Virus record (IMG/VR): IMGVR_UViG_3300032322_002195
Coordinates: 32,001-96,000 of that record
From: a virus
Direction: 5' to 3' (one strand)
Length of the DNA: 64,000 bases
Shown here: piece after piece, positions 31,734 through 55,103 of the stretch
Layout: each line of letters opens with the position of its first letter
How positions within the stretch are numbered: the stretch's first letter is position 1
Translations under genes and position numbers: made by a program
Notes under the pieces: model-generated
What the model was told of the DNA's origin: nothing
What the model saw: only the letters and a program-made list of their open reading frames with translations
Databases searched by the model: none

Positions 31734-31775
31734 TTAAGGGCCAGAATTTTCTGGCTCTTTTTTATATTTATTGAT

Positions 31776-32507
31776 ATGATTGAGGATATTCTAAAAGATA
31801 AGTATGGTAATTATTTAGTTGGCTTAGACATCTATGAAAATAGAGGTAGTCTTAGATTGTCTAGAATTATTATAAAACCAGAATATATGGGTAAAGGTAT
31901 TGGTAGCAAAATTATGGAAGATTTGGTAGAGTATGCTGACAATAATAAAAAAATAATCGTTCTGACCCCATCAAGTGATTTTGGCGGTAATAAAAACCGT
32001 TTGATACAATTTTATAAACGTTTTGGTTTTAAACACAACAAAGGCCACCATAAAAGTTTTGAATTTATGGACTCTATGATTAGATATCCAAATTTAAATG
32101 AAACTATGAAACCATTTATAAAAACTTTACTTAGAGAAAGTTTGATGACTAAAGAAGATTCTGTTATTAGACAAGTTGTTGATTTTGTTAATTTTTCTAA
32201 AGAATTCTTAGGTATTGACGATGATATTAAAGTTAAATTGGCATTTGAAAGGACACCAGATTTAAAAACAACAGCTTATTACAGCACCAATGGTTTTGTG
32301 GTCGTATACGCAAAAGATAGAGCCATAATAGATGTTTGCCGTTCAATAGCTCATGAGCTAGTTCATCATAAACAAAACTTGGATGGGAGACTTAGAGATG
32401 CTGCTCGTGATGGTGAAGACGGTTCACCAATAGAAAATGAGGCAAACGCTATTTCTGGTATTATAATTAGAAAATACGGTAGACTTAATCCAGAGATTTA
32501 TGTGTAA
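31776..32507 (+). CDS. GNAT acetyltransferase fused to a zincin-like (HELVH) domain
   Basis: YMGKGIGSKIM and FYKRFGF GNAT motifs; IAHELVHHKQ...IENEANA. Confidence 0.75.
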   Translation: MIEDILKDKYGNYLVGLDIYENRGSLRLSRIIIKPEYMGKGIGSKIMEDLVEYADNNKKIIVLTPSSDFGGNKNRLIQFYKRFGFKHNKGHHKSFEFMDSMIRYPNLNETMKPFIKTLLRESLMTKEDSVIRQVVDFVNFSKEFLGIDDDIKVKLAFERTPDLKTTAYYSTNGFVVVYAKDRAIIDVCRSIAHELVHHKQNLDGRLRDAARDGEDGSPIENEANAISGIIIRKYGRLNPEIYV

Positions 32508-33357
32508 CACAAAACAACTTTTACGAGAAGAACTTTATTTACACAATAGAAAAAAACTATTGTCTGAACAATCTCTATTGATTATACAAGATGATTTTTA
32601 CGTCAAAACAACATTAGGTATCGATAAATTCCTTTATGAAAATAATTTATTTGAATACAAAAAATTAATAATTGAACAACAAATAATTATAGAATCAATG
32701 CTAGTTTCTATAAACAATTATTTAGGTAATATGGTTCAAAAAGGTAAAGAAAAATCTTTGCAGTTAATGAATGATATTAAAAATGTTAAAGATTTAGCAA
32801 TATTATTTAAAAATATTTTACTGGACCCAAAATTGATGGAAGAAGCTATTGAAAATGTTAAAAATGCTATTAATAATCAGTTGGATAGAATTAAATTGTT
32901 GATAGAAAAAGTTATTCAAGTTATTTCTGTAAATTTGGTTGGTTTTACAGATAAATTAAAAACTTTTTTAGATAATGTTTTAAAATATGGTAAAGAATTC
33001 CTTGATAAAAAAGGCTGGGTTGGCTTTATAATGGGGTTAGGATTAGCCGTGTTATTAACATGGGTTAATAAAAATTGGTTGGAAAAATTAGGGGGTGTAG
33101 TTTTGGACAAAACGATAGAGCAAATTAAAAACATTGAGTCAGTTATAAATATTTTCAATAGCTTAAAAGATTTGTCATCATACGTTGCCAGTAACTTAGG
33201 TATTGAAAACATCCTAAAATGGTTTATAAATTTTGGTACTAAGACTCAATTAATTGGTGTAACGTTTTTAGCAGCTGAAATAATCAAAATAATTTACGAT
33301 ATTTTAGTCCCAACGGTTAGAGACGTAAAAACAAGATTTAATTTGTCAAAAACTTAA
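32500..33357 (+). CDS. hypothetical membrane-associated protein
   Basis: Hydrophobic GWVGFIMGLGLAVLLTW segment. Confidence 0.65.
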   Translation: MCNTKQLLREELYLHNRKKLLSEQSLLIIQDDFYVKTTLGIDKFLYENNLFEYKKLIIEQQIIIESMLVSINNYLGNMVQKGKEKSLQLMNDIKNVKDLAILFKNILLDPKLMEEAIENVKNAINNQLDRIKLLIEKVIQVISVNLVGFTDKLKTFLDNVLKYGKEFLDKKGWVGFIMGLGLAVLLTWVNKNWLEKLGGVVLDKTIEQIKNIESVINIFNSLKDLSSYVASNLGIENILKWFINFGTKTQLIGVTFLAAEIIKIIYDILVPTVRDVKTRFNLSKT

Positions 33358-33367
33358 TAAACTGCTC

Positions 33368-33535
33368 ATGTATAATAAAAAAACTATATTAGAATCTCTA
33401 AAAAGATTATTAGAAGCCAATAAAAATAAAGTTGATATTGGTGATGAAATACATTTACCAGACCTTACGATGAAGAAAAAAGATTTATTAAAATATCTAA
33501 AAAATACTTATAACATAATTCTTAAAGAAGATTAA
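33368..33535 (+). CDS. small hypothetical protein (55 aa, not in ORF track)
   Basis: MYNKKTILESLKRLLE...ILKED fills the gap between genes. Confidence 0.5.
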   Translation: MYNKKTILESLKRLLEANKNKVDIGDEIHLPDLTMKKKDLLKYLKNTYNIILKED

Positions 33536-33536
33536 A

Positions 33537-34175
33537 ATGAACACAATTAAAGGTGGTAAAGCAGATAAAATGTCTGTTGAAAACATTGCAAATAAATTCA
33601 ACGTATCTGTTGAAAAAGTTAAGGCACAAATTAAAAAAGGTGTTGAGATTGAAAAAGAACACACCAATGATAAAGAAAAAGCAACAGAAATAGCCATGGA
33701 CCACGTATCTGAATTTCCAGATTACTACGATAGAATAGAAAAAATGGAAAAGGATGCTAAGAAAAAATGGGAAGTTAATGAATCAAAACTTATTATTAAG
33801 AGTTTATTAAAAGAAGGTCTTACTAGAAAAGAAATTATTGATTTTTTCTTGGAATTAGGTTTTTTCTTGTCTTTAAATTTAGCAAAAGTTCAACAAGAGG
33901 CAAAAGATTCTAACTCATTAACCGAATTAAATCTAATGATGCAAACTATTAGTAAACCATTGATAAACGGTAAAAATATTTTTGAGTTAAATAAAGAAAT
34001 CAGTTCAATAGTTAATAACCCTAAAATGTTGTCGGCACTATTAGGGCAAGTAAAAAATTTGATAGAATATGTTGAACCTAGAATAAAAAAATACGTTAAA
34101 GATAGTGATAAAAAAAATATATGGCTTAAAAAAATGGATAATTTTAAAACCATATATTTGAATATAATTAAATAG
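33537..34175 (+). CDS. two-module protein with a DUF5661-like N-terminus
   Basis: GVEIEKEHTND..ATEIAMDHVSEFPDYYDRI. Confidence 0.6.
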   Translation: MNTIKGGKADKMSVENIANKFNVSVEKVKAQIKKGVEIEKEHTNDKEKATEIAMDHVSEFPDYYDRIEKMEKDAKKKWEVNESKLIIKSLLKEGLTRKEIIDFFLELGFFLSLNLAKVQQEAKDSNSLTELNLMMQTISKPLINGKNIFELNKEISSIVNNPKMLSALLGQVKNLIEYVEPRIKKYVKDSDKKNIWLKKMDNFKTIYLNIIK

Positions 34176-34590
34176 TGATTTCACCAACATACTCGTGACT
34201 AAAACAAATTCGTTTGTTGTCAAAGTAATGTTCCTTGTACATATTCTTAACCGTAACATCCTTACGCAATTTTCTATTTTTGCTGGTGCCAACCCAAAGT
34301 GGTGACTTCTCCCTGTAATGGCCCATGCGTGGATGACTAGTTCTAGAAAAATATCTGTGACCTTGGTCAATATGAATCTGACCAATCGCATCTGAAAATC
34401 TCACTCCAATTCCCATACCTTGATAATCTGGAAGAATAACCGTTCGATGACCACGCCATGCATTTTTTAATGTACCGCTAGGCAAAGTTAAAGTTGCTCC
34501 AAATGCAACAACTTGGTTTTCCCAAACCCCTACATAACATCTAGCTGCTTTATTTATATTTCCATCTAAATAGTGATGGTCTTTAAACAT
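34168..34590 (-). CDS. Mom-like GNAT acetyltransferase domain (probable frameshift fusion partner)
   Basis: FKDHHYL and RTVILPDYQGMGIG motifs; frame open upstream to the T9 run. Confidence 0.75.
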   Translation of the reverse strand: MFKDHHYLDGNINKAARCYVGVWENQVVAFGATLTLPSGTLKNAWRGHRTVILPDYQGMGIGVRFSDAIGQIHIDQGHRYFSRTSHPRMGHYREKSPLWVGTSKNRKLRKDVTVKNMYKEHYFDNKRICFSHEYVGEITI

Positions 34591-35255
34591 TCCCCAACTA
34601 TCATAGTTTGTGCGATATATTTTGATAGTGATTTTTGGTCGGACAAAAAAAAACCGTGAAGCAATTCACCAGTATCCGTATTTAAAACCCAATCAGGTTC
34701 CAACCAATCAATGATGTCATAATGACATGTTGATAGAACAACATTTTCAATATCATTACTTTTGATATATTTTGATAAAGCTACGCTAGCTGCTTTTGCT
34801 ACGTTACGGTCAACAACGCTGGTATATTCATCAATAACAGCACCAGTTTTAAGCTTTCTGGCTAAGTCAGCTCTGAATTTCTCACCATTGGATAAAACAT
34901 CATATGGCTTATACCACGAAGGGATTGAATTAAAACCAACAGAGCTAAGTCTGTTGACACCATTGTCTGGTGTGTCAAAATGTGATATGACTGCTTTCTT
35001 AGATTCCCAAATAGGGTTCTCTTCTGAACCAAAATGCCGTAATAAAGTTGATTTTCCAGACCCTGAAGAACCTACAATCACACCTAATTTAAAACTTTTA
35101 GGCAATTTTTTTGGAAATTTCCATGGATAAAATTTTGAAGTGCCGTCAAATCGGCAATCGAATGCCGTTTCTGTTGCCGAAATAAATTCATCTTTATTAA
35201 CTGAGCAAATCAAAGGCTCAGATTCTTTTTCCAATTTCTCAATCAAGTTATCCAT
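34566..35255 (-). CDS. ABC-type ATPase domain
   Basis: GSSGSGKST Walker A, LSNGEKFRA signature, IDEYTSVVDR Walker B, STCH H-loop. Confidence 0.85.
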   Translation of the reverse strand: MDNLIEKLEKESEPLICSVNKDEFISATETAFDCRFDGTSKFYPWKFPKKLPKSFKLGVIVGSSGSGKSTLLRHFGSEENPIWESKKAVISHFDTPDNGVNRLSSVGFNSIPSWYKPYDVLSNGEKFRADLARKLKTGAVIDEYTSVVDRNVAKAASVALSKYIKSNDIENVVLSTCHYDIIDWLEPDWVLNTDTGELLHGFFLSDQKSLSKYIAQTMIVGECLKTITI

Positions 35256-35353
35256 ATGTCACAAAAATATATTAAATTTGTGACAAGTAAAGACAAAAAA
35301 ATGGCTAGACATTTTGAAAAAAATGCCCAGCCATTAATATTTTAATAGTGTGA

Positions 35354-35566
35354 TTATTTCTTTTTAACCTCAGTCAAAGATTTGACAGCAGCCTCTAATT
35401 TAGCAATTTTACTTTCCAGTACTGTTGCTTTATCTGATTTATTTTTAGCTTGTTCGTTAATCCACTCTTGTTTTTTTACAGCAACAGCTTCGTTAACAAT
35501 TTTGTCAATCAAATCGACTAATTCACTCTCTTTAATCTTAACTGTTTTTTTTGCTACTTTTGACAT
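35354..35566 (-). CDS. small coiled-coil protein
   Basis: KIKESELVDLIDKIVNE; TATTTATA motif upstream. Confidence 0.65.
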   Translation of the reverse strand: MSKVAKKTVKIKESELVDLIDKIVNEAVAVKKQEWINEQAKNKSDKATVLESKIAKLEAAVKSLTEVKKK

Positions 35567-35644
35567 TTGTTTGAGTTTTATAAAATCTTATTATTACTAT
35601 AAATATATCGAATTTATAAAAAAGATTCATATCGTTTAAAAATC

Positions 35645-35800
35645 TTACTCGTCAACTCTAACCACATCAAATATAGTAAGTAAATCGTATAAATTAAGTC
35701 TTTTAATTTTGGAAAAATATTCCTGAGCTTCTATTAGTGAATTAGCTATCGTGTAAGTTATTGTCTCACCAAAACTGTTTTTAAGTGCGTATTTATTCAT
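35645..35800 (-). CDS. small hypothetical protein (51 aa, not in ORF track)
   Basis: MNKYALKNSFGE...VVRVDE. Confidence 0.5.
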   Translation of the reverse strand: MNKYALKNSFGETITYTIANSLIEAQEYFSKIKRLNLYDLLTIFDVVRVDE

Positions 35801-35824
35801 TTTTAATTTTTATTATTAAATAAG

Positions 35825-36355
35825 TTAACATAATTTATCAGCACATGATGAACTAGCGTAAGCATCTGGTTTTATTTTAAAATCATAACCCATTCCAAGT
35901 ATATAACCAACAGCATGTTGTAATGCTTTATTTGAATCATATGTTGGATTTGGATTGATATCAGCATGAATTTCAAGTTTAACTCCATAAGAATCCAATA
36001 AGCTTGCTATACTGTAAGCAGCTTCAATAGATTTACCAACTTCATAAACCATTCTTTCATTTATGATTTCTTTATCTGCTAATTTTCTATTAGTTTGTTT
36101 TGTTTTAAATGTGTGCATATGAGTGTGAGATATCACAATACCACCACGACCAACAATAACACCACCACCTAAATCCTCAAAAGTTGAAATTAAAATTACA
36201 GTAACAAAATTATATTTTGGACCACTAATTTTTTGAGAGTCAGTCCCAATTGAAACCTTTAATGTGTATCCCTTTTCAACTTCTTCTATTATAATACTTT
36301 CTAAGTAATCATTAATAGGTACTGTAATTTTTTTGTTGTTTCTTTTCCATTCCAT
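35825..36355 (-). CDS. RNase H-like YkuK (DUF458) family protein
   Basis: IGTDSQ, EVGKS, EIHADIN and KPDAYASSSCAD motifs. Confidence 0.8.
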   Translation of the reverse strand: MEWKRNNKKITVPINDYLESIIIEEVEKGYTLKVSIGTDSQKISGPKYNFVTVILISTFEDLGGGVIVGRGGIVISHTHMHTFKTKQTNRKLADKEIINERMVYEVGKSIEAAYSIASLLDSYGVKLEIHADINPNPTYDSNKALQHAVGYILGMGYDFKIKPDAYASSSCADKLC

Positions 36356-36416
36356 TTTATTTAGTTTTTAATTTTGTTATTAATAAAAAAAACCCCAGTT
36401 AATTCTGGGGTTAAAT

Positions 36417-37829
36417 TTAGTTTATTAAAGTTTGTGGTAACAAACTTTTTAATTTTCTATAATTTTCCACCCCTATATCTTCTTCTCTTACCCCTAGTCT
36501 ATGTAACGAACCACCGTTACTTTTATCCAAATAAGAAATTTCATACGGTATATCTTTAATTATATTTCCAGTTAGGTTCAAAAAAACAAGATTTTTAAGA
36601 TTGCCAATTTCACTTGGCAATTTTTTTATTTTATTGTCCGTCAGAACCAACATTTCTAGAGTTGTCAAATTACCTATAGATGGATGTAAATCAACCAATC
36701 CAGCTCCAGTTATAATAAGCTGGTCGATTAATTTAAATTTACTCATGTCTGGTAATTTTGGTACTTCTCTTCTCATAATTTTTATTGTCGGTACATTCTC
36801 ATGATACATTTCAAACAAACTCTCAGAAAAACCAAACTTGATTAGAAAGTCTAAATATTTGTTTGAATCTAATCCCTTTTTGTAATCTTTAGCCATTCCC
36901 ATCAATTCCTCATAAAAGAAATTACTTAATCCTTCGCTTTCCACCAAAACATTTTCATAAATTCCAACATTTTGTGCGTTCTTTCTGTCTTTTAATTGAC
37001 CCGTTTCAAAATGTATTTGAAACAACTCATCCGATTCTTTTGTAAAAAATTTGTTATTTATTATAATATAAATATCAGAGTTTTCACCGTTTGGTTTTTT
37101 ATAATTTTGAGTGTAATTCTTAAACATACCATTGCCTTCTTTAGCCGTACACCAGTTGGCAAATTTATCAAATATAACATTTGCAGATGTTGTCTTTGGA
37201 ATAAATAATGTAAATTTTCTATCCCTTACTGGTATTTCAGCTTGCCCAGACTCAACAAATTTATTCATGGTCCTCTCAACAGCGCTTGGTTCTCTTTCAA
37301 TAAATGGGTCCACAGCATCAAAAAGTTGAGCCAATGACTTGTATTGATTGATATTAGTCGGGTCGCTAATGTGTTTAAGACTATAACTAGCAGAACATAA
37401 TTCCTTAAATTTCTTTTTTCGTTTGTTGTCTTCAAACATAACAAGATAAGTTTTGGCTTGTGGCAAATCTTCAGTTACAAACCTAGAAGCTTGCGCCATT
37501 TCTTTTTCAGAACCTGTTTTGATGTACCTAGTAAAAGTGTTTAACATCCATTGCAAATACATTTTGTTTTCCGTTGGGTCTGCAACAACCATATCAGCAA
37601 ACACATTTGAAGCAACACTAATCTTTTTTAAGATTCTACCCTTTTCATTAAACCTAGTAGAGTTAATAGCAATAACTTCTCCACTATTTGTTAAAATAGG
37701 GTTGCCTTGAAAACCTAATTCTAAAAGTTCTTTTAACTTTAAATTAGTTCTTTCAACATCAATGTTTTCAAAAACATCAAACTGCTCAGCCAAAAAAGTT
37801 AATCTATCTGTTATATTAGACTCTTTCAT
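36417..37829 (-). CDS. leucine-rich-repeat protein
   Basis: C-terminal LHPSIGNLTTLEMLVLTDNKIKKLPSEIGNLKNL repeats; NWCTA motif. Confidence 0.85.
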   Translation of the reverse strand: MKESNITDRLTFLAEQFDVFENIDVERTNLKLKELLELGFQGNPILTNSGEVIAINSTRFNEKGRILKKISVASNVFADMVVADPTENKMYLQWMLNTFTRYIKTGSEKEMAQASRFVTEDLPQAKTYLVMFEDNKRKKKFKELCSASYSLKHISDPTNINQYKSLAQLFDAVDPFIEREPSAVERTMNKFVESGQAEIPVRDRKFTLFIPKTTSANVIFDKFANWCTAKEGNGMFKNYTQNYKKPNGENSDIYIIINNKFFTKESDELFQIHFETGQLKDRKNAQNVGIYENVLVESEGLSNFFYEELMGMAKDYKKGLDSNKYLDFLIKFGFSESLFEMYHENVPTIKIMRREVPKLPDMSKFKLIDQLIITGAGLVDLHPSIGNLTTLEMLVLTDNKIKKLPSEIGNLKNLVFLNLTGNIIKDIPYEISYLDKSNGGSLHRLGVREEDIGVENYRKLKSLLPQTLIN

Positions 37830-37876
37830 AACACATTTTAAATCAAAGATACGAAAATATTTTTAACAAGACAAGA

Positions 37877-38218
37877 CTATGGTAAAAATCTTTTCATCAA
37901 ATCATCGTCCAAATATTCCTCAACCCTACGCTTTAAAAACCAAGTTAAATTATCAAAACTGTCAGAATCCCTATTTATAACATCTAATAAAACTATGTTT
38001 GGATTTTCACCGTCAGTTAACCTATATTTTATCTCGTCTATAACGTCTGTACGATTATAACTCATAAGTTGTTGTAATATAACACCATAAGTTTCCCATC
38101 TAGCCTCTTCATCCTCATTCAATGTTTTCACAATATTATTCACATGCTTTTGGTACGCTTTATCCAGTGTAGTTTTTTTTCCTTTTGTGGGTATTATTAA
38201 CAAATTAAAATCCCTCAT
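37877..38218 (-). CDS. hypothetical protein
   Basis: 113-aa ORF; TATTTATA motif upstream. Confidence 0.65.
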   Translation of the reverse strand: MRDFNLLIIPTKGKKTTLDKAYQKHVNNIVKTLNEDEEARWETYGVILQQLMSYNRTDVIDEIKYRLTDGENPNIVLLDVINRDSDSFDNLTWFLKRRVEEYLDDDLMKRFLP

Positions 38219-38259
38219 AAGCGTATTTTAAATAGAATCGTTATTTACTATAAATATCT

Positions 38260-39297
38260 TTAAAGTCCCATTTCACCAAGCTTTTGAATAACATCTTCTA
38301 CTTTTGTCTGAGCATCAATCGAATAATTTACTCTATCTAAATCTTCAACACAAAATCGAGTGATATTTGTTTGAAATTCATGCCATTTAGGTGTAACATC
38401 GCTAACCATAACTACATGAGTACCAAGGGCCCAAGCCAACCAACTTAGCCCAGAACTAACCCCTAAATGAGCTTTAGCGTGATATATGTCTAACGCCCTT
38501 TTTTCCAAAGATATATCGCCAGTCAAATCAATTACATTTCTTAAATTTGTTGGTTCTTTTGAAATAACCAAAACTTGGTAGTCTTTTGAACCCAAATAAT
38601 CAACAACTTTTTGCCACCCATCTACATCTTTCCATTTTTTTATATCTGAACTCCCATGTTCGGACAACGTCACGTAATTACCTTTTATTCTTGGCGATAA
38701 ATGCTTACATAAAATACTCAAATCTGGCCTAATTTCAACACGGTCCAACCCCAATGTGTCAGTTGCAACTATTTGTAATGGTACTTTGCTAACTTTAACA
38801 GGGCAATAATATGGGTTGTCATCATCACTGGCCCCAATGTAATATTGGGTATAAACATTGTCAATTTGTGTATTTGGTTTTACAAATAAAATTTCTGGAT
38901 ATGCATCTATAAATAAATTATTATAAAAAGTAGAACAAATAACTGTACATTGATGTTTCTTTCTGAATTCTTCAACATATGGCATCCAAGCAATGTTATC
39001 ACCCAAAGCATATGCGTCAAATTTAATAAATATTTTTTTACCATTTGGATTAAAAAATTCATGATAAACAGGTGTACCATCCTCATCATCAATAATTATT
39101 AACCAATTGGTAAACCATTGTTTTGTTTTTGCTACAATCGTTTGATTTGTTTGACATGAACCAGAACTAACCAATCCTTTATTAAACTCATAAAAGAAAA
39201 CATTATATTTTTTAGGTATGTCCCCAATAATGCTAACCCTAGGTGCATTACCTTCTTTTGGTAATGTCGTTACATAACTAACTTTAAAACAATTCAT
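38260..39297 (-). CDS. autotransporter O-heptosyltransferase-like glycosyltransferase (Aah/TibC, GT9-like)
   Basis: ALGDNIAWMPYVEEFRKKHQC and HLGVSSGLSWLAWALG motifs. Confidence 0.75.
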   Translation of the reverse strand: MNCFKVSYVTTLPKEGNAPRVSIIGDIPKKYNVFFYEFNKGLVSSGSCQTNQTIVAKTKQWFTNWLIIIDDEDGTPVYHEFFNPNGKKIFIKFDAYALGDNIAWMPYVEEFRKKHQCTVICSTFYNNLFIDAYPEILFVKPNTQIDNVYTQYYIGASDDDNPYYCPVKVSKVPLQIVATDTLGLDRVEIRPDLSILCKHLSPRIKGNYVTLSEHGSSDIKKWKDVDGWQKVVDYLGSKDYQVLVISKEPTNLRNVIDLTGDISLEKRALDIYHAKAHLGVSSGLSWLAWALGTHVVMVSDVTPKWHEFQTNITRFCVEDLDRVNYSIDAQTKVEDVIQKLGEMGL

Positions 39298-39298
39298 T

Positions 39299-39619
39299 TT
39301 AAAAATTTTTAATCTTATAATATAATCTTTCTAATTCTGGTGTAAACACCTTTACATCTTCAATTGTCTCGATAATCGAATCATTAGTGCTATTTTCTTC
39401 TGTCAATATATATTGAAGTTCTTTAACTTTTAACATGTCTTTTATGGAATGTTTGAGTTCTAAAACTACTTGATTGTACGTGGCCCAAACTTTTCTTTTT
39501 TCTGTTGATTTGGCCATAAGGTTTTCAGTGACTTTAATTTCGTATTCGTGTTCTAAATTAGATTTAAACCCACCATACTGTTCATCAAGAACTTTCCTTA
39601 TTTTAGCCTTTAAGTCCAT
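39299..39619 (-). CDS. hypothetical protein
   Basis: 106-aa ORF. Confidence 0.65.
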   Translation of the reverse strand: MDLKAKIRKVLDEQYGGFKSNLEHEYEIKVTENLMAKSTEKRKVWATYNQVVLELKHSIKDMLKVKELQYILTEENSTNDSIIETIEDVKVFTPELERLYYKIKNF

Positions 39620-39623
39620 ATCA

Positions 39624-39962
39624 CTAATTCATAGCCACATTCTTTGACAAATTATAGTTATCATCAATGTTCCCAAAAACCCAATCTTTAATAACTTGTT
39701 GTGTAAATTCTTCACCCATCTTGTACTTGTATTTCATATACTCATACAAAGATTTGGGTGAAATAACCTCACCATCAGCCCTAACCTCAATCATGGGTGT
39801 TTCGTAATATTCACCACCTTCACGAACAAATTTTTGAACAGCTTCATAATTCATGTCTAAATCCTTTTTCATCTTTTTAACCATGTTTGAATGAGCACTT
39901 TCGTTCAGAGTTTGTTTTAAACGATTAAATTGTCCCTCTGTTATTATAATCTTCTTTTTCAT
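39624..39962 (-). CDS. hypothetical protein, putative head-packaged
   Basis: MKKKIIITEGQFNRLKQTLNE N-terminus. Confidence 0.65.
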   Translation of the reverse strand: MKKKIIITEGQFNRLKQTLNESAHSNMVKKMKKDLDMNYEAVQKFVREGGEYYETPMIEVRADGEVISPKSLYEYMKYKYKMGEEFTQQVIKDWVFGNIDDNYNLSKNVAMN

Positions 39963-40011
39963 ATCTATAAATATCTATTCACAATAAAAAAGGGCTCATA
40001 TGAGCCCTTAA

Positions 40012-40335
40012 TCACAATAACAAATTATTTATTTTTTGTTCTATTTCATTTTTAGGTTTAAAACCACTGAATCTATCAATTATTTCACCGTTTTTGATGA
40101 AAATTAAGGTAGGGATACCCCTTATACCGTATTTAACAGCTGCTCCAGAATTCTCATCAACATTTATCTTACCAATGTTAATTTTATCATTATCTTTGAA
40201 TTCTGTAGAGAGTTCATCAATTATTGGGGTTAACATTCTACATGGACCGCACCATGGTGCCCAAAAATCCAATACGGTTATCTCTTTTTCTTTTAAAACA
40301 CTTTCTAATGTGTTATCAGTTACTTCTAATGCCAT
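40012..40335 (-). CDS. trxA: thioredoxin
   Basis: DFWAPWCGPCRM active site. Confidence 0.95.
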   Translation of the reverse strand: MALEVTDNTLESVLKEKEITVLDFWAPWCGPCRMLTPIIDELSTEFKDNDKINIGKINVDENSGAAVKYGIRGIPTLIFIKNGEIIDRFSGFKPKNEIEQKINNLLL

Positions 40336-40395
40336 TTACTTAAGTTTTATTTTTTGTTATAATTATAAATATACAAAACAATTTTGAAATAATCA

Positions 40396-40647
40396 ATGTC
40401 CGATTCAGAAATTATTTGGAAGTACCTAGACCGTGAATACCCTAATGACCATTTGGTTATTTATTTGTATGTTTGTGGGAATGTTAGGAGTAATAAAAAA
40501 GCTCTAACAAGTGTCTGCGATTCAATCAAAACTATATTTAGCCCACCAATTAATGAATCAATTATTAAATCAACAGTCACTGGGTTTTTAGAAAATAAAC
40601 TTAAACTATATAAAAAAGGTGAGATTCAAGTAAAGTCTTTATATTAA
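40396..40647 (+). CDS. hypothetical protein
   Basis: 83-aa ORF. Confidence 0.55.
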   Translation: MSDSEIIWKYLDREYPNDHLVIYLYVCGNVRSNKKALTSVCDSIKTIFSPPINESIIKSTVTGFLENKLKLYKKGEIQVKSLY

Positions 40648-40958
40648 ATAATATCACCACAATTTGGAAAAAATTCTTTTACCAATCTGACAGGTTCTTC
40701 AAACTTTTCAAATTTACGCAATGAAAAAAAGTTTAATATATATACCCCACATTCTTCATTACTAAAAGAAAATATATCAGTTAACATCCTAGAAATAATT
40801 GATATATGGCTAATTTCTTGTTTTGACAAAACCCTATCATTTAAAGAAGCTGCCATCAATCTACAATAACTAAAATGAGTCATGCAATTTGTTTGTTTGT
40901 AAAGTTTTAAAGTTACTTCACAAATTAATAAATAAACATGGTTATCAAATTTTTTCAT
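40644..40958 (-). CDS. hypothetical protein
   Basis: Likely start MKKFDNH. Confidence 0.5.
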   Translation of the reverse strand: MKKFDNHVYLLICEVTLKLYKQTNCMTHFSYCRLMAASLNDRVLSKQEISHISIISRMLTDIFSFSNEECGVYILNFFSLRKFEKFEEPVRLVKEFFPNCGDII

Positions 40959-48467: not shown

Positions 48468-49352
48468 TTAGTTTAATTCGGCATAAACCAATTGGTGGGC
48501 TGTTTCGTTCATTTTTGCAGCACTTGCAAAAAGAATTGTTTCTTGGTCACCTTCTGCGAGGTTGTGAGTAGTGTACCTTGTAACACCTTGCAATAGGCTG
48601 AAAAGGTTTGCGCCTGTATTTTGCATTTCAATTGCTACTGATTGATTGATAGCATCCAAAATGTTACGTTTGCGGGTATTAAGGTCGTTGTATTCTTTAA
48701 CATCATAGCCTGTCAAAGCAGTCAAAAAGGTATCAATATCTTTTTGTTTTACTGATTTCAAAACTGATTGGTTAAGTAGTTCCACATGGTTTCTAGTCAT
48801 TTCGGCAGCTTTCAAAATTTCATTGGTGAAATAAGATACTTTGATAACATTGCCTTTGGTATTTTTCATAGAAAGGTCAACGTCTTTTTGCCAATTTTTA
48901 GCACCATTTGCACACCACAAGCGAAGGGAATAGAAACCGAGGGAAATTTTTGTTTTTCCATCAAAACCTGTTCTGAATTCCAAAGCCGTTTCCAAGGCAT
49001 CGCCTACCATTGGGGTTTTAAGTTCGTATTTTTTGAAAGGGATACGGAAAGCTACTTTTGAACCGCCACGATATTCTGTATAGGTCAATTTTGAAAGGTC
49101 AAGATTAAGATTAGACTGCAATACAGAGTGCTGAATTGAATCCAAAAACAAGTGTAAATCCATTGGTTCAAAATCTTTACCAACAACACCCAAGGCATTG
49201 CCTCCGTTTGATTTATAGATACCATAGGCATCGGGTGAATTGTAACCATCAATACCTGAATGCAATTGGATTTTTTTGGCTACCAATACTTGGCTTTTAA
49301 GGTTTTCAAATGAATTCATTTGGTTTTCGATTGTTGAAAGGATGTTTTCCAT
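48468..49352 (-). CDS. DUF932-family protein
   Basis: LGVVGKDFEP, TGFDGK, LRLWCANG and NLFSLLQGVTRYTTH motifs. Confidence 0.75.
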   Translation of the reverse strand: MENILSTIENQMNSFENLKSQVLVAKKIQLHSGIDGYNSPDAYGIYKSNGGNALGVVGKDFEPMDLHLFLDSIQHSVLQSNLNLDLSKLTYTEYRGGSKVAFRIPFKKYELKTPMVGDALETALEFRTGFDGKTKISLGFYSLRLWCANGAKNWQKDVDLSMKNTKGNVIKVSYFTNEILKAAEMTRNHVELLNQSVLKSVKQKDIDTFLTALTGYDVKEYNDLNTRKRNILDAINQSVAIEMQNTGANLFSLLQGVTRYTTHNLAEGDQETILFASAAKMNETAHQLVYAELN

Positions 49353-49701
49353 TTTTTAAATATTTAATTGATTAATGATGGGGCAAAGGTAGTAAAAAAA
49401 TTGAAACTACCAAATTTTATTTTAATTAATTTGAAAAAGTTTATTAACAATTAGGTTGTTAATAACTTTATTTGGTAGATTGAAAAATTTTTATTATATT
49501 ACGCACGTGTGTATGTGTATAAAAAAATATAAGGCAGGTTGGAGTATACTCTTCCGTTGTTTTTTGAACCCCAGCCCGTTGTTTTTGAATTATCAACGGG
49601 ACAAAGATAGGGAATAAATTTGTAACTACCAAATTTATTTTAATTTATTTATAAAAAAAAAGCACCCTATTAATAGAGTGCTTTTTTGTGGTGTGTTTAT
49701 G

Positions 49702-50220
49702 TTATTCAGCGAACATAATTTTCGCACCGCATTTGATTTCTTTGATACCTGACAATTTGACAGTTCTCACAATAATATCATTTTCAAGTTCTTGGTTTGT
49801 TGCTTTGCTTGGTGCTGGTTTAAATTTCTTTATAGTGGAAATTTGCTCGTCTGTTGCTTCAATACCATCTACGAAGTATTTTAGCGTTTTAGCGTTATTA
49901 CAAGCGAAAAACAAATATAAAGCGGTTGTATCTTTTTTATTGCAAACGATTGAGCCGTTAAAGCCATCATTCACTTTCTGAAACCAATTTTCTTTGGCTT
50001 CAAAATCTGCTTCTTTACCTTCTTTCTCTCTGCGATTGTTTACCATATTGGTATAATTCGCATTAAGGAGCATATTGTAATTAACCATTTTGGTAATTTT
50101 GGCAGTTGCCAATGGATTGCCCCTTTTCAGTTGCTTTTCTTCTACGATTGCGGTCATTTGTGCGAAAGTAGCAGAACCGCCATCATTGATAAGGGTTTCG
50201 ATAATTGATTGTTTGTTCAT
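49702..50220 (-). CDS. hypothetical protein
   Basis: 172-aa ORF with its own promoter and terminator. Confidence 0.75.
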   Translation of the reverse strand: MNKQSIIETLINDGGSATFAQMTAIVEEKQLKRGNPLATAKITKMVNYNMLLNANYTNMVNNRREKEGKEADFEAKENWFQKVNDGFNGSIVCNKKDTTALYLFFACNNAKTLKYFVDGIEATDEQISTIKKFKPAPSKATNQELENDIIVRTVKLSGIKEIKCGAKIMFAE

Positions 50221-50526
50221 ACGTTTGTTTGTTTAATTGTTTAACGATGATGCAAATAAAGGAATTATTTTTGACATTACCAAATTTAAATGAATTTATT
50301 TTAAGTTAGTTTATCAACATTTTTTTGTTGATAACTTAATTTGGTAGTATGGAATTTTTTTTGTACTTTTGCAAACTTTTTTCGGATATGTATAAAAAAA
50401 ATATAAGGTAGGTCGGAGTATACCTTCCGTTACCTTGTGAGCAACGTCCCGTCTGATTGACACTGCAAATATAAAAAAAAGGTTTGAGATTACCAAACCT
50501 TTTTGAAAATAAATTTGTTAAATTTT

Positions 50527-50766
50527 TTACCACCTATCATACCACTTTGAAGCATAGTAGTTTCTTGCTTTTTTATGGCTTTGTTTTTTAGGTTTCACAT
50601 AGTAGGGTGTTTTGCTTGCTTTCTGTCCCCAAACTACTTCCGTTCCTCTTGATATGGGTGTTGGCGCACCTTTACCCATAGAAACTGAATAGCAAGGTGA
50701 TGTAGTGCTGCAAGAGCTAATAAAGAGGGTAAGAGCTGCGAGGGTTGATAATACGATTGTTTTCAT
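50527..50766 (-). CDS. small putative lipoprotein
   Basis: MKTIVLSTLAALTLFISS-C. Confidence 0.6.
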   Translation of the reverse strand: MKTIVLSTLAALTLFISSCSTTSPCYSVSMGKGAPTPISRGTEVVWGQKASKTPYYVKPKKQSHKKARNYYASKWYDRW

Positions 50767-50859
50767 GTTTGTTTGTTTTAGTGATGCAAAGATAGACAAG
50801 TTTTTGATATTTCCAAATTTTAAATGAATTTATTTTATAAAAAAATTTTTGGTAGAAAA

Positions 50860-50891
50860 TTTGGTAGATTGAAAAAAAGTTTGTATATTTG
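50860..50891 (+). promoter_or_regulatory. Bacteroidota-type promoter driving the ncRNA cluster
   Basis: tttg-gtagattgaaaaaaagtttg-tatatttg. Confidence 0.8.
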
Positions 50892-50966
50892 CAGTGTTGT
50901 AAATGGTTCACAAGGTGTCTGAAAGTGGACTAACCAAATACGCAGGTCAATCGACATTTACAACAT

Positions 50967-51066
50967 AGTCAGAGAAGCATGATTAGGTTATATGCCCTAC
51001 TTGGGTTGAAGTAGTTACTTCGTAATTCCGCATGGGTGATAGCAGGTTCGAATCCTGTCCTGACTA
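50967..51066 (+). ncRNA. tRNA-like RNA with atypical interior
   Basis: Acceptor AGTCAGA/CCTGACT and T arm GCAGG-TTCGAAT-CCTGT; no recognisable D or anticodon arm. Confidence 0.6.
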
Positions 51067-51152
51067 CTAATTAGACCAACCTCCTTCCCATTAGAACAGG
51101 ACGCTCAGGATTTAAGTAGGGTTTGATTCCCCTTAATTAATTGGTCAATTTT

Positions 51153-51231
51153 GGTTAAATGGCGTAGCTGGATAGCGCAAGGATAGTGGCAGACCCCACC
51201 CTTTACACAGGTTCGAATCCTGTTTTAACCA
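51153..51231 (+). ncRNA. tRNA-like RNA with aberrant anticodon arm
   Basis: Acceptor GGTTAAA/TTTAACC, D arm GCG..GG..CGC, T arm ACAGG-TTCGAAT-CCTGT; bulged anticodon stem with a 6-nt loop. Confidence 0.65.
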
Positions 51232-51330
51232 CGAATGCAGTTCAAATCTGCTCGTTGACTGAGGTTATGGTAAGTAGACTATTGAGGTACGCACTCAACT
51301 TAGAAATAAGGTAGAATGAAGTGAACAGTC

Positions 51331-51363
51331 AAAAAAAAGGGGTTGCTAATGCACCCCTTTTTT
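51331..51363. terminator. bidirectional intrinsic terminator
   Basis: aaaaaaagggg-ttgctaatgca-ccccttttt. Confidence 0.8.
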
Positions 51364-51386
51364 ATTTATATGTACGCAAATGTGTA

Positions 51387-51542
51387 CTATTTTTTTAGGT
51401 TAATGAATCTATTTTTTGTTTCACCTTTTAATCGGTAATTAAATTTGAATCCAGAGCCATCTTCAAATTCAATCATTTGAATTGGGAGTTGGAAAGAGAA
51501 GTGGTTTTTTTCTATTTCTGATATTGCTTGTTGAAGTTTCAT
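51387..51542 (-). CDS. small hypothetical protein (51 aa, not in ORF track)
   Basis: MKLQQAISEIEKNH...EFEDGSGFKFNY. Confidence 0.55.
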   Translation of the reverse strand: MKLQQAISEIEKNHFSFQLPIQMIEFEDGSGFKFNYRLKGETKNRFINLKK

Positions 51543-51828
51543 ATTAATTTATTTAAATGTTATTGAATATAAGAGCCACATAAAGCAGAGTAAATAGGGA
51601 ACCCAAAAAGATTATTGGGTAATAGAACTCTAATGGATTTGATTTCCTTTTTTGGTTTAGGGATGATAAAACTTGTTTCATTGTTTTGATTATTTAATTG
51701 ATAGGACAAAGATAAGCAAATTAATTTAAACTACCAAATTTATTTTGAATTTTGAAGACCTACTCAAATATTTTATTAAAAACCAATTGGTTGCAAAAAG
51801 GTATGTATATATGATAGTTATAGGTAAT

Positions 51829-51999
51829 TTAAAAACTGACCATGTGCCAAATTTTACATTCTATATCTAATTTAAGTTGTTGCTCTTTAATTTTGCTTTC
51901 ATTAGCCCAGTAATATTTCCAAAATTCATCATCTGATTGAAATTGTCCTATTTTTATTTCTTTCGTTTCAGCAAAATTAAACATAAAGTACTGTTTCAT
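51829..51999 (-). CDS. 56-aa ORF inside attC-type cassette A (not in ORF track)
   Basis: MKQYFMFNFAETKE...WHMVSF; the stop lies in the cassette terminal repeat. Confidence 0.55.
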   Translation of the reverse strand: MKQYFMFNFAETKEIKIGQFQSDDEFWKYYWANESKIKEQQLKLDIECKIWHMVSF

Positions 52000-52019
52000 A
52001 ATTCAGTTTTTAAACATAC

Positions 52020-52115
52020 CTATAACAAAGTGTATAAGTAATGTGGCTAAATAAATTTAGTTCTAAGTTGAAAGTATGTGCAAAGCCACACTACTCATAC
52101 ACTCAACCGTTAGCG
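52020..52115 (+). mobile_element. attC-like integron recombination site 1
   Basis: R'' CTATAAC and R' GTTAGCG; inner arms gtgtataagtaatgtggct / agccacactactcatacac. Confidence 0.75.
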
Positions 52116-52121
52116 GTAATC

Positions 52122-52382
52122 TTAAAGACACTCCGCATATTCAATATATTCTTTATGCCTTTGTCTAAAATGATTGAGATGCCATTTAGACCTTTCAATA
52201 AATTCTTTCGGTGCATTTTTACTTTCGAGCCAATAAAGGTGGTTCTTTTCCTTTTCAATCATTCTTTCGACAAAAGGTATTATATCGTTTACCATTTGCT
52301 CCTTGAAAGAAAGACTACCGCTAACAACAGGTTTATTCAATGCGGGTTTTCTGCTCCCAAATAACATTTTTAGTAATTTCAT
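52122..52382 (-). CDS. 86-aa ORF of cassette B, starting inside attC site 2
   Basis: The N-terminal PALNKPVVSGS is the antisense reading of the attC arm. Confidence 0.6.
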   Translation of the reverse strand: MKLLKMLFGSRKPALNKPVVSGSLSFKEQMVNDIIPFVERMIEKEKNHLYWLESKNAPKEFIERSKWHLNHFRQRHKEYIEYAECL

Positions 52383-52448
52383 ATTTTCTGCTTTTAAGTT
52401 AATTTATCTGTTAATTCTAGCACTAAATAAACCTGCGGTACGTTAGCA
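52319..52448 (+). mobile_element. attC-like integron recombination site 2
   Basis: R'' CGCTAAC and R' GTTAGCA; inner arms caggtttattcaatgc / gcactaaataaacctg. Confidence 0.75.
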
Positions 52449-52459
52449 GAAAAAGTTTG

Positions 52460-52750
52460 CTAAAACCTCTTTCCACAATTATTGCAGTGATAACCTCTAT
52501 GAGTTCGTACTCTGTCTTGGGTACTGTGAAAGCAAACTTCATCTGCTAACACAGTACATAACTTTTTTTTTAGGTATTTAATTACATCAGCCCAATATTC
52601 ATCATTAGGAGAAAAACCTATATTTGATGCTATTTTTTCGGCACACCAAATTGCTATCCTTATCGAAATGGCTTCTTTTGTTCCTCCTGAAGATGGTGCA
52701 TATTCATACGCTTCATCAATTAGTTTTTCTGCTTGTTGTTCTACTGTCAT
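52460..52750 (-). CDS. hypothetical protein whose C-terminal CxxC tail comes from cassette C
   Basis: Reads through the TGCTAAC box at 52544-52550. Confidence 0.6.
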   Translation of the reverse strand: MTVEQQAEKLIDEAYEYAPSSGGTKEAISIRIAIWCAEKIASNIGFSPNDEYWADVIKYLKKKLCTVLADEVCFHSTQDRVRTHRGYHCNNCGKRF

Positions 52751-52806
52751 TACTTGTCGTTTTTAACTAATCATAATTGATTATTTGATAAGACAAAGAT
52801 AAGCAA

Positions 52807-53064
52807 TTAATTTGAATCTTCCAAATAAAATTTTACAAAAGGTTCCATCTTAAATTCCTTTACAAATTCGTATTGTTGGTCTTTTGGGATTACATCCAAT
52901 AATTCTCTTATTCTTGGTGTATCGTTAATTAAAAAACCACCAGTCATAAATTGTTGTCCATCTTTTTCAATAGCTGCTAAACTATTTGTTTTATTGATAG
53001 CATTGGCCAACAATATAACTTCTTCATATCCATTTGTGTCAGGTGTAATGTGTAAAATTTTCAT
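52807..53064 (-). CDS. hypothetical early protein
   Basis: Own promoter repeat; ends inside the next repeat (YLEDSN). Confidence 0.7.
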   Translation of the reverse strand: MKILHITPDTNGYEEVILLANAINKTNSLAAIEKDGQQFMTGGFLINDTPRIRELLDVIPKDQQYEFVKEFKMEPFVKFYLEDSN

Positions 53065-53128
53065 TTGTTTTGATTATTTAATTGATAGGACAAAGATAAG
53101 CAAATTAATTTAAACTACCAAATTTATT

Positions 53129-53377
53129 TCAATCGTCATCTCTCTCAAATTGCGATAAAAAATTTTGTACCTTATCGTTTAAATCTTTATGTTCTTTTTT
53201 TAATTTAGAATGATAACTTTGATAATAGTTTAAACCATCAATAAGAGCTTGTTGTTCGCTTTTGGCATGAATTGCTATATTAAAACCAGCTACGTTATCC
53301 CAAAGATAATACCCATCCGTACATTCTGTCAAAATTAGTCTATCAGTTTTAAATACATTTCTAATTGCTTTTCCCAT
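53129..53377 (-). CDS. hypothetical early protein
   Basis: Own promoter repeat. Confidence 0.7.
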   Translation of the reverse strand: MGKAIRNVFKTDRLILTECTDGYYLWDNVAGFNIAIHAKSEQQALIDGLNYYQSYHSKLKKEHKDLNDKVQNFLSQFERDDD

Positions 53378-53409
53378 GATTGATTTTTTGATAGGGCAAA
53401 GATAAGTAA

Positions 53410-53619
53410 TTAATTTGAATCTACCAAATAAAATTTGATATTATTTTTATTTACTGGGGTTACATAACCTTTTAAATAAATTAATTCATTTTCTATTTTG
53501 ATTGGAACAAATATTCCACCATTAATATAAACCCTGCCAACAATCCTATATGGTTTATTTAATTCAATGTTTTCTATTGGTGTTTTGGTTGCCAATAAAT
53601 AAGCAGCTGTCATACTCAT
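53410..53619 (-). CDS. hypothetical early protein
   Basis: Own promoter repeat; ends YLVDSN inside the next repeat. Confidence 0.65.
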   Translation of the reverse strand: MSMTAAYLLATKTPIENIELNKPYRIVGRVYINGGIFVPIKIENELIYLKGYVTPVNKNNIKFYLVDSN

Positions 53620-53717
53620 AATTGATTATTTGATAGGACAAAGATAAGTAATTAAATTGATATAAACAAAAAAGGGTGAAAATATTTTCACCCAATTTAT
53701 CATCAATCAAAACGCTT

Positions 53718-53912
53718 TTATAATGTTGGATATTTTTCTAGGAATTCGGTATAAACTTCATTAGGATTAATTTCAACGCTGGTATCTTTATATTTCATTA
53801 CCAAATATTTCACAAAATTAATTTTATGATTGATAAATGAATTATCATTGCCAGCAATTATTTCTTGAATATCATTTAAATGTGATGCGATGATTAGAGA
53901 TACTTTTGCCAT
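53718..53912 (-). CDS. hypothetical early protein
   Basis: Own promoter repeat. Confidence 0.65.
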   Translation of the reverse strand: MAKVSLIIASHLNDIQEIIAGNDNSFINHKINFVKYLVMKYKDTSVEINPNEVYTEFLEKYPTL

Positions 53913-53966
53913 GTTGTTTAATTATTTGATAGGACAAAGATAAGTAATTAATTTAAACTACCAAAT

Positions 53967-54233
53967 TTATTTTTGTGGAATAGTTACTCTTGTTAAGATA
54001 AATTCTTCTTGAAAATCTCCATTATCCCATTTGATTTTTGTTAATTGGAATTGTTCTTCTTTTGGTCTAAGGGAATTCAAGTATTCAACACGACCCATTT
54101 TAACACCTTGTGAATTTTTTCCTGAGTGACCAATTCGGTTAAATTCATTTAATTCCTCTTCGCTTAAGAAATCTAACGTTTTACCATTAACATGACCCAA
54201 TGAGGTGCTTATTCTAAAATTTTCTATTATCAT
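53967..54233 (-). CDS. hypothetical early protein
   Basis: Own promoter repeat. Confidence 0.7.
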   Translation of the reverse strand: MIIENFRISTSLGHVNGKTLDFLSEEELNEFNRIGHSGKNSQGVKMGRVEYLNSLRPKEEQFQLTKIKWDNGDFQEEFILTRVTIPQK

Positions 54234-54309
54234 TTGTTTTGATTATTGATAAGACAAAGATAAGTATAAAAAACGAAACCACCAAATTTCTTTGATGGTT
54301 TCTTTTAAA

Positions 54310-54606
54310 TTAGTTTAAGATTTCTTGAATGCTCGGCTTATCCAATTCTGCCTTATAATCTGCCAAAATCTTTTCAAATTCGGGAAGACATTCAGCAGCC
54401 GTTTTTCCTTTTAAACCATAATAGTCTTTTAAATCTTTTAGCTTAATTCCTTTGAATTTCATTCCAAGTGAAAGGATTTTAAGATTATAGCGGTGTGTAG
54501 CCAATTGATAACCAAAGTAATCTATTTTTTTGTTACCCATTGAAACACTTGGTGTACTTAATTCACCATTTCTAACTTGTTGTTGTGCTTGTTCGAATTT
54601 TGTCAT
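54310..54606 (-). CDS. hypothetical early protein
   Basis: Own promoter repeat. Confidence 0.7.
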   Translation of the reverse strand: MTKFEQAQQQVRNGELSTPSVSMGNKKIDYFGYQLATHRYNLKILSLGMKFKGIKLKDLKDYYGLKGKTAAECLPEFEKILADYKAELDKPSIQEILN

Positions 54607-54851
54607 TGTTTTAATTATTGATAGGGCAAAGATAAGTAAATTAATTTAAACTACCAAATTTTTATTTAGAATTTTTTTTGTCACCCTCAAAGACAAACCC
54701 ACTGGAAAACCACCATAGAGCCAACCTGAAAGACCAATAAATATTTCTACCATGATTACGCCCATTGATATAACATTCATAGGCTTTTTTTACTCTGTAT
54801 TTTGTAATTTTCATACTGCAAAGATAAGTAAATTAATTTAAACTACCAAAT

Positions 54852-55103
54852 TTATTTTTTTCCCACCGCACTACTGATAACTTCTAAATCTGAAATTCGT
54901 TCCATTAAGGCATCAATCTCATGTTGCATTTTGTCCTTATCGTCTTCAAGTTCTACAACCGCTGCGATTAGGTCATCAATCTCATGTTGCATTTTGTCCT
55001 TATCGCCTTCAAGTTCTTCAATCTCTGCGATTAGGTCATCAATGATGCTTTCAAAATCTCTTTTGGCGATATCAACTCGCCTTGATAAACGTGTATTATC
55101 CAT
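54852..55103 (-). CDS. acidic coiled-coil protein with an internal 21-aa duplication
   Basis: IDDLIAEIEELEGDKDKMQHE / IDDLIAAVVELEDDKDKMQHE. Confidence 0.7.
   Translation of the reverse strand: MDNTRLSRRVDIAKRDFESIIDDLIAEIEELEGDKDKMQHEIDDLIAAVVELEDDKDKMQHEIDALMERISDLEVISSAVGKK

Follow-up and report, generated by a model that had tools for sequence, protein, structure and literature searches.

Can phages run a gene-capture system of the integron kind with an enzyme that is not an integron integrase? The integron is seen as a device of bacteria, tied to a single specialised integrase. The question is raised by a 64-kb stretch of viral DNA, positions 32,001 to 96,000 of IMG/VR record IMGVR_UViG_3300032322_002195 (the window, to which all coordinates below refer), taken from a virus fragment of 108,837 bases that is rated 32% complete (record G000). 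Between positions 51806 and 52750, this stretch holds a row of three small units with inverted ends, two long hairpins and a phage gene that one of the units has extended. The original prediction, made from the letters of the DNA, took the row for an integron-type array of cassettes with attC sites and no integrase.

The row, carried by a large freshwater phage, is probably the tail of an integron-like cassette array belonging to a family of Bacteroidota phages, here without its recombinase. From the original prediction, the cassettes, the folding sites and the inverted polarity have stood, whereas the IntI-like enzyme and the canonical attC features are not supported.

Three gene cassettes and two hairpins

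The three units are gene cassettes. All genes around the cluster lie on the - strand, and in their direction the row begins with a resident small gene, a 96-aa open reading frame (ORF; 52750-52460), whose end is formed by cassette C (109 bp, 52550-52442). There follow a long attC-like hairpin of 124 nt (52445-52322), cassette B (217 bp, 52325-52109), a short hairpin of 90 nt (52112-52023) and cassette A (210 bp, 52026-51817). The three long inverted repeats that had been predicted are all in place, with 22/24 matching positions in A (51817-51839 with 52003-52026, with one indel and a gapless core of 19 nt), 14/15 in B (52109-52123 with 52311-52325) and 18/20 in C (52442-52461 with 52531-52550). 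The first bases of each cassette complement its own far box, as expected, over 15-24 bp. The two hairpins between the units are likewise real, measuring 90 and 124 nt from box to box, near the 96 and 130 bp first given.

The long hairpin contains in its loop the start codon (52382) and leader of an 86-aa ORF (52122-52382) whose core is cassette B, which agrees with the claim that one ORF starts inside a folding site. The short hairpin has a 20-bp stem that is 90% paired and includes two G.T wobbles, and a 35-nt loop without a start codon; cassette A has a 56-aa ORF (51829-51999) with its own start codon. Cassette C codes for a 30-aa Cys/His peptide. No hairpin precedes it at 52551-52570, and its site is therefore truncated, as had been proposed. 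Searches with Pfam and PHROGs returned nothing significant for the three cassette proteins.

A scan for TAAC-stem-GTTA elements found only these two hairpins in the 108,837 bases, compared with none or one in each of 10 shuffled sequences. No Rfam 15 family matched over either hairpin in a search of 49000-55000 at E<=10, and a phage collection searched by DNA gave a single, unrelated match of 240 bp.

Units recurring in unrelated contexts

The sequence of the window recurs in lake-water metagenomes, and relatives have DNA in common with it only in blocks whose borders fall at the boxes. Two related loci (L003 and L004) share DNA with 52445-52108, that is, with the long hairpin and cassette B. 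In a third (L006), the match covers 52447-52314 and is followed by a different cassette with inverted ends of its own, so that the long hairpin there precedes another cassette. A fourth (L001) matches 52769-52562 and lacks unit C, the DNA homology ending at 52562. In an all-against-all comparison, the long hairpin together with cassette B was found in at least seven contexts, each time bounded from TAAC to TAAC, and the pair is 100% identical over 339 bp between L010 and L015/L016, the flanks of which are unrelated. Contigs from two independent lake runs (X2, X3) cover exactly 52109-52447 and then diverge; this comparison used assembled contigs and not raw reads, and rare excision circles or inversions would not appear in such contigs.

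The short hairpin behaves in the same way. It is found alone in other contexts, in lake contigs covering 52020-52114, and in the likely source sample the contigs break at 52014 and 52112. Together with cassette A, it recurs in viral contig L130 with 95% identity over 328 bp, both flanks being different and the right border lying just past the TAAC box. These recurring blocks from box to box define the mobile unit as a single hairpin together with the gene next to it in sense direction, and they support the original proposal of cassettes lying between folding sites that have a GTT/AAC core. The borders of indels and mosaics in relatives fall at the GTTA boxes, so that the original prediction passes the test it had set for itself, in which indel boundaries unrelated to the GTT sites would have counted against it.

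Since the boxes read identically on both strands, the polarity of the sites needed independent evidence. This comes from the joint travel of hairpin and gene and from the position of the junction motif and recombinase gene in relatives (below), and both lead again to the predicted arrangement of genes antisense to site polarity. Viewed on the + strand, a unit starts after the G of GTTA, carries its gene antisense and ends in its folding site, which is the layout of an integron cassette. Invertible segments of the inverton or shufflon type were also considered, each unit lying between inverted boxes, and were rejected, given that cassette B has the same orientation in more than 100 protein relatives and that hairpin orientation always follows gene orientation.

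A family of hairpins with a conserved fold

To derive a structure consensus, 28 sites were aligned with MAFFT. All 28 have TAACG and TGTTA without variation, and of 112 further sites, 111-112 keep the AAC and GTT triplets. The consensus consists of a base helix of 5 bp, the last pair of which is an invariant G.T, a 4-nt bulge on the 5' side, a stem of 19-20 bp and a loop of about 35 or about 70 nt, and in many cases the loop contains the start codon and the leader of the gene that comes next. Compensatory changes occur in 18 of the 24 pairs. Across the 28 sites, 91.5% of the cells are paired; the figure is 65.5% for shuffles and 35-48% after the partners have been shifted along the sequence. 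The covariation score of 0.59 (0.16 in shuffles) was reached by none of 500 shuffles. The 112 further sites show 93.5% pairing versus 60.6%, in an alignment that was fitted to the model.

The wobbles are one-sided, with 40 G.T against 6 A.C pairs, the G always standing on the 5' arm of the sense strand, which identifies the sense strand as the folding strand. A G.T pair is also present at position 11 of most cassette end repeats, as read from their listed arms. The extrahelical bases expected of attC sites were not recovered; the folds show the one-sided 4-nt bulge and the G.T wobbles instead.

The two hairpins of the window belong to this family. A covariance model (R2), trained on 112 sites in recombinase loci, none of them from the window, scores the long hairpin at 87.4 bits on the - strand versus 9.0 on the + strand, and the short hairpin at 73.5 versus 15.6 bits. 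These matches were obtained with the search filters off, the default filters having missed both sites through an artefact, and nothing else in the 64-kb window was found by R2 at E<=0.1. Chance repeats are ruled out by the shuffles and this model together. Retron-like, terminator and RNase III readings of the stems were rejected as well, as the stems lack a following T-run and these readings leave the exact borders and the link to a recombinase unexplained.

A Xer-like recombinase at the end of related arrays

The link to a recombinase was found in record G003 (rated 94% complete), where at least six cassettes form a row that stops 50 nt short of the start codon of a 277-aa Xer-like tyrosine recombinase encoded on the same strand; a second row in G003 ends in the junction motif without a recombinase. 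The catalytic residues of the enzyme are conserved in its relatives, which are 265-290 aa long and are encoded directly after an array. Alignment of this recombinase with the Vibrio integrase VchIntIA (2a3v) gives two blocks that skip about 24 residues (chain 178-200), corresponding to the IntI-specific insertion, and the enzyme scores below the cut-offs of TIGR02249 and NF040815. The original prediction had named an IntI-like recombinase as the enzyme; the family associated with the hairpins is instead Xer-like and lacks this insertion, and the enzyme is probably not an IntI-type integrase.

As a single query, the G003 recombinase matched only itself. A five-sequence alignment of close relatives retrieved 76 viral loci, 65 of which encode close relatives of the enzyme. 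A first model placed 168 hairpins in the 76 loci, all but 4 on the recombinase strand. With a stricter scanner, 104 hairpins lay upstream of the recombinase versus 8 downstream (0.29 versus 0.017 per kb), the nearest being mostly 220-1000 nt from the start codon, and no hairpins were found beside the 11 recombinases of less than 36% identity. The last cassette is closed by TAAC and followed by a TAYTATATGTA-like motif, 55-70 nt upstream of the recombinase start codon, in 43 of the 53 close recombinase loci. This junction motif is rare: a search of 1.78 Mb, covering both strands, gave only 71 matches. When the strand is flipped, the order of recombinase gene, docking site and cassettes with their sites at the far end is the integron plan with the genes inverted.

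The same layout is present in genome records of Chitinophagales, Pedobacter and Flavobacterium. In the cultured Flavobacterium urumqiense CGMCC 1.9230 (L120 7440-8804, NZ_FNVP01000009.1), a hairpin, one 99-aa cassette, the junction motif and the recombinase stand in a row; part of the sequence upstream in L120 is masked as N. Many viral contigs (L048-L051, L056, L059, L068, L075, L076 and L078) stop 50-370 nt before the recombinase gene begins, an effect to be expected of repeated arrays, suggesting that assemblies break within the arrays and that array sizes are underestimated. In related arrays, the larger cassettes code for several classes of DNA methyltransferase, a Mom-family protein, a PAPS-reductase-like protein and a GNAT acetyltransferase, and this cargo points to counter-defence.

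The window as an orphan array end

The cluster in the window retains the end of such an array. Its junction motif (TAAC followed by TAYYATATRTA, 51806-51820, - strand) is the only perfect match in the window, where 0.15 matches would be expected at up to one mismatch, and is attI-like by its position in relatives. What follows it is a promoter-like repeat and unrelated small ORFs, without a recombinase gene, and a tblastn search of record G000 with the G003 recombinase gave no significant match (best E-value 6). Tyrosine, serine and Y1 recombinases were not found on G000, G001, G002 or G004, nor were the tyrosine and Y1 families, the only ones searched for there, on G005. The cluster is thus an orphan, comparable with the clusters of attC sites lacking an integrase (CALINs), whose enzyme was lost or was never encoded in cis. 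The enzyme may lie in the unsampled part of the genome, given that a 306-kb contig encodes a protein identical to the 96-aa ORF, or it may act in trans; alternatively, the cluster may be a fossil.

Cassettes as parts of new proteins

The proteins of the locus are mosaics whose joints coincide with the boxes. Of the protein clusters related to the 86-aa ORF (112 in all), many share its core only, joined at the residues VSGS to many different leaders, and eight share only the leader of the window, joined to other cores. VSGS is the translated box in the cassette B protein. As the box can be read as codons, insertion of a cassette also fuses reading frames. Relatives of cassette B were not found in 185,579 bacterial species genomes.

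For cassette C, the fusion involves a gene that was already present. Relatives of the 96-aa ORF are 63-64 aa long and match its residues 1-64 only, while the 30-aa Cys/His peptide of cassette C sits behind other, unrelated leaders in P0136-P0139. In combination, these two observations demonstrate that cassette C was grafted, in frame, onto the resident gene, contributing about its last 30 residues, and they bear out the earlier claim that a phage gene had gained a CxxC tail in this way.

A model of cassette exchange

The following model would account for these observations. Read on the sense strand, a mobile unit, preceded by TAAC, consists of G, a 4-nt bulge, a stem of about 20 bp, a loop, the returning stem and T, and then of GTTA with 10-20 cassette-specific bases, the gene, the complement of those bases and a final TAAC. 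Folding of the sense strand as single-stranded DNA would pair the ends of the gene segment and bring both cut sites, presumably at the TAAC box, to the foot of the hairpin. The unit could then leave as a circle and enter at another TAAC site, provided either by another hairpin or by the docking motif beside the recombinase gene. The likely catalyst would be the Xer-like tyrosine recombinase of 265-290 aa, the gene of which directly follows the array in relatives. In the phage of the window, cassette B would be translated from the start codon in the hairpin loop, and cassette C now forms the C-terminus of the resident gene.

On balance, it seems probable that Bacteroidota phages run their own integron-like capture with a Xer-type recombinase, although this enzyme is without the segment considered essential for recombination of folded single strands, and that the sites double as in-frame joints from which new small proteins are built. 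Such proteins would arise from loop-encoded leaders joined to cassette cores, or from cassettes grafted onto resident genes, as at 52460-52750. The same machinery would move counter-defence genes.

Promoter-like repeats and a second layer of modularity

A further kind of modularity surrounds the cassettes. A 65-nt repeat on the - strand has direct copies (family D1) at 51681-51745, 52768-52832, 53065-53129 and 53371-53435, two of which are 100% identical and lie 1384 bp apart. The repeat is a putative promoter, judging from its Bacteroidota-type TTTG / TAnnTTTG pattern; the copy at 52768-52832 lies upstream of the cluster in gene direction and that at 51681-51745 is the next one after it. These two form the ends of a polymorphism of 1087 bp. 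In two other lake runs, contigs of close relatives join 51704 to 52792 through 15 shared letters, the segment 51705-52791 being absent, and contigs from other lakes join copies of the repeat with skips of 1087 bp and back-joins of 1384 bp. Modules between the repeats are therefore gained and lost by recombination between the repeats, and two layers of modularity overlap at this locus.

Evidence against the model and alternative explanations

Several observations weigh against an integron-like array moved by the Xer-like enzyme. The largest polymorphism at the locus, that of 1087 bp, is bounded by the promoter-like repeats rather than by TAAC/GTTA boxes. Searches of the 108.8 kb of the source record for recombinases of the tyrosine (PF00589), serine and Y1 types detected none, which bears out the earlier remark that none lies nearby and leaves cassette activity in the phage of the window unproven. 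The 31.5-kb record G004 (rated 95% complete) carries at least 14 hairpins, with hairpin-bounded cassettes making up about a third of the genome (L028 8400-18300), and no tyrosine, serine or Y1 recombinase was detected in it either; hence the enzyme could work in trans, come from the host or be another than the one put forward here. The Xer-like recombinase also lacks the insertion that integron integrases use to hold their folded sites. As for the hairpin model R2, its training sites had been found by an earlier model that contained the sites of the window, so that it is independent in training and not in discovery. Finally, the wobbles on the sense strand and the strict match between hairpin and gene orientation also fit a role at the level of RNA, single-stranded DNA and RNA being indistinguishable in this respect.

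This last point leads to an alternative in which the hairpins are RNA elements for processing, stability or translation control of early transcripts, and the shuffling results from ordinary recombination, homologous or illegitimate, at the short conserved boxes with no dedicated recombinase involved. The fixed, G.U-compatible wobbles on the sense strand, the constant orientation relative to the genes, the start codons in the loops and the 1087-bp indel between promoter-like repeats would all be in keeping with such elements. They would leave unexplained why rows of hairpins end at a conserved junction motif beside one clade of recombinases, and why the borders of units whose flanks are unrelated fall exactly at a core of 4 nt; the cassette-specific terminal repeats also lack an obvious RNA role. 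This makes an exclusive RNA function improbable, although the hairpins may have a dual role in DNA and RNA. A different enzyme is assumed if the units are moved as single-stranded DNA by a HUH transposase of the IS200/IS605 type, inserting 3' of TAAC, in the manner of palindrome-associated transposable elements (PATEs). A unit is indeed preceded by TAAC and ends in TAAC, has a subterminal hairpin near its 5' end and shows strong strand bias. Each unit, however, has one hairpin and not one at each end, no Y1 transposase (PF01797) was matched on G000-G005, and the consistent neighbour of the arrays is a Xer-type tyrosine recombinase, which together make a transposase of this kind very improbable.

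The alternative nearest to the original prediction is a classical CALIN, in which true attC sites and cassettes from a bacterial integron are recombined by the IntI of a host. The AAC/GTT core, the self-complementary cassette starts, the homogeneous site lengths and the array layout all match, and phage CALINs have been published, with some phage sites recombined by IntI1 (Qi et al., 2023; PMC9892861). The hairpin family nevertheless travels with a Xer-like recombinase that lacks the insertion (I2), rather than with IntI, and the strict R-box consensus, the extrahelical bases and the 5/5-6 spacer are absent. On the - strand, the inverse cores of the window are CGCTAAC, CTATAAC and TGCTAAC and the cores are GTTAGCG, GTTATAG and GTTAGCA, of which only the TAAC and GTTA parts fit RYYYAAC/GTTRRRY. 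The absence of cassette B from the bacterial species genomes searched also speaks against this alternative, as does the finding that P12002L_attC1, the one published site belonging to the hairpin family, was the only one of the six sites that yielded no verified IntI1 recombination junction (Qi et al., 2023). A classical CALIN is thus an unlikely explanation of the locus, and an integron-like phage array with a Xer-like enzyme is preferred.

Comparison with known systems

The phage arrays share with integrons, above all with sedentary chromosomal integrons and CALINs, rows of small, promoter-poor cassettes, as well as the occurrence of orphan clusters without an integrase. In both, the folding sites are imperfect palindromes in which structure and length rather than sequence are conserved, only the AAC/GTT core being fixed; the start of a cassette is complementary to its own inverse core, and one strand folds better than the other. 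In relatives of the window, as in integrons, a docking site and a tyrosine recombinase stand at the end where the cassette has no hairpin of its own. The differences begin with the enzyme, which in the phage family is Xer-like, 265-290 aa long and without the IntI insertion, so that the system resembles an integron in operation without being one in the classical sense. Neither the folds nor the consensus of the phage hairpins show the symmetric spacer and the extrahelical bases of integron sites; the hairpins have a base helix of 5 bp that includes an invariant G.T, a 4-nt bulge on one side only and G.T wobbles at fixed positions. The bulge and wobbles may serve the same purpose as the canonical attC features. 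In addition, end complementarity in the phage units reaches 15-24 bp, phage cassette genes run towards the recombinase and antisense to site polarity, and many hairpin loops supply the start of the next gene.

The closest published case comes from 17 phages, the cultured Polaribacter phage P12002L among them, that carry clusters of attC sites and no integrase; two sites per phage were called with integron tools and read as parts of bacterial integrons (Qi et al., 2023). These phage CALINs resemble the present family in host phylum, in methyltransferase cargo and in the lack of an integrase in the phage, but differ in that no dedicated Xer-like recombinase, docking motif or protein fusions were reported; our literature searches likewise found phage CALINs and no report of these three features. 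Model R2 detects 12 - strand sites in P12002L (L023) at 30000-40957, including the published attC1 (30000-30064), with scores of 19-55 bits. They lie in a methyltransferase/Mom region and are shorter and lower-scoring than those of the window, and neither a relative of the Xer-like recombinase nor the junction motif was found in P12002L. Primers in the supplement of the same study (PMC9892861) show that PH101_attC1 and PH101_attC2 of a Pseudoalteromonas phage, which were recombined by IntI1, begin with TAACG and end with TTGTTAT. From these end sequences, the frame of the hairpin family may extend beyond Bacteroidota phages.

Two phage systems offer partial parallels. The first has the enzymatic likeness of a Xer-type enzyme without the IntI insertion acting on a one-strand hairpin: in CTX phage, XerC/XerD, which lack the insertion, recombine a folded single-stranded attP hairpin. 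There, unlike in the present family, the whole phage genome is integrated at the dif site of the host, and there are no cassettes and no arrays. The second concerns the promoter-like repeats. In T4-type phages, small early genes lie between repeated promoter elements (PeSL), and modules are lost or gained by homologous recombination. The 1087-bp polymorphism at 51705-52791 is an example of such module loss between repeats, whereas PeSL shuffling leaves the box-bounded units, their inverted ends and the recombinase link unexplained.

Integron logic, with sites on a folded strand, a docking site and rows of small cassettes, is thus found in phages with a plain Xer-like enzyme. Should this enzyme prove to be the catalyst, recombination of hairpins would either have had two origins or be older than the IntI insertion. 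With a cargo consisting mostly of DNA-modification genes, the arrays would form a store of counter-defence genes for rapid exchange among unrelated lake phages with sizes from 31 kb to more than 300 kb. To this the window adds an orphan cluster that has kept its docking motif, a gene translated from inside a site and a resident gene remodelled by a cassette, and the one-cassette platform in the cultured Flavobacterium urumqiense CGMCC 1.9230 makes the system testable.

Other features near the locus

On the + strand, a 107-aa ORF (52041-52364) is open antisense across cassette B; it is of low complexity and probably not a gene. Beyond the cluster, ARAGORN reports a tRNA with an undetermined anticodon at 51153-51232, to which the Rfam tRNA model gives a score of 46 bits. 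Direct repeats resembling a T-arm are present at 51043 and 51208 (region 50895-51363), on the + strand and thus opposite to the neighbouring genes.

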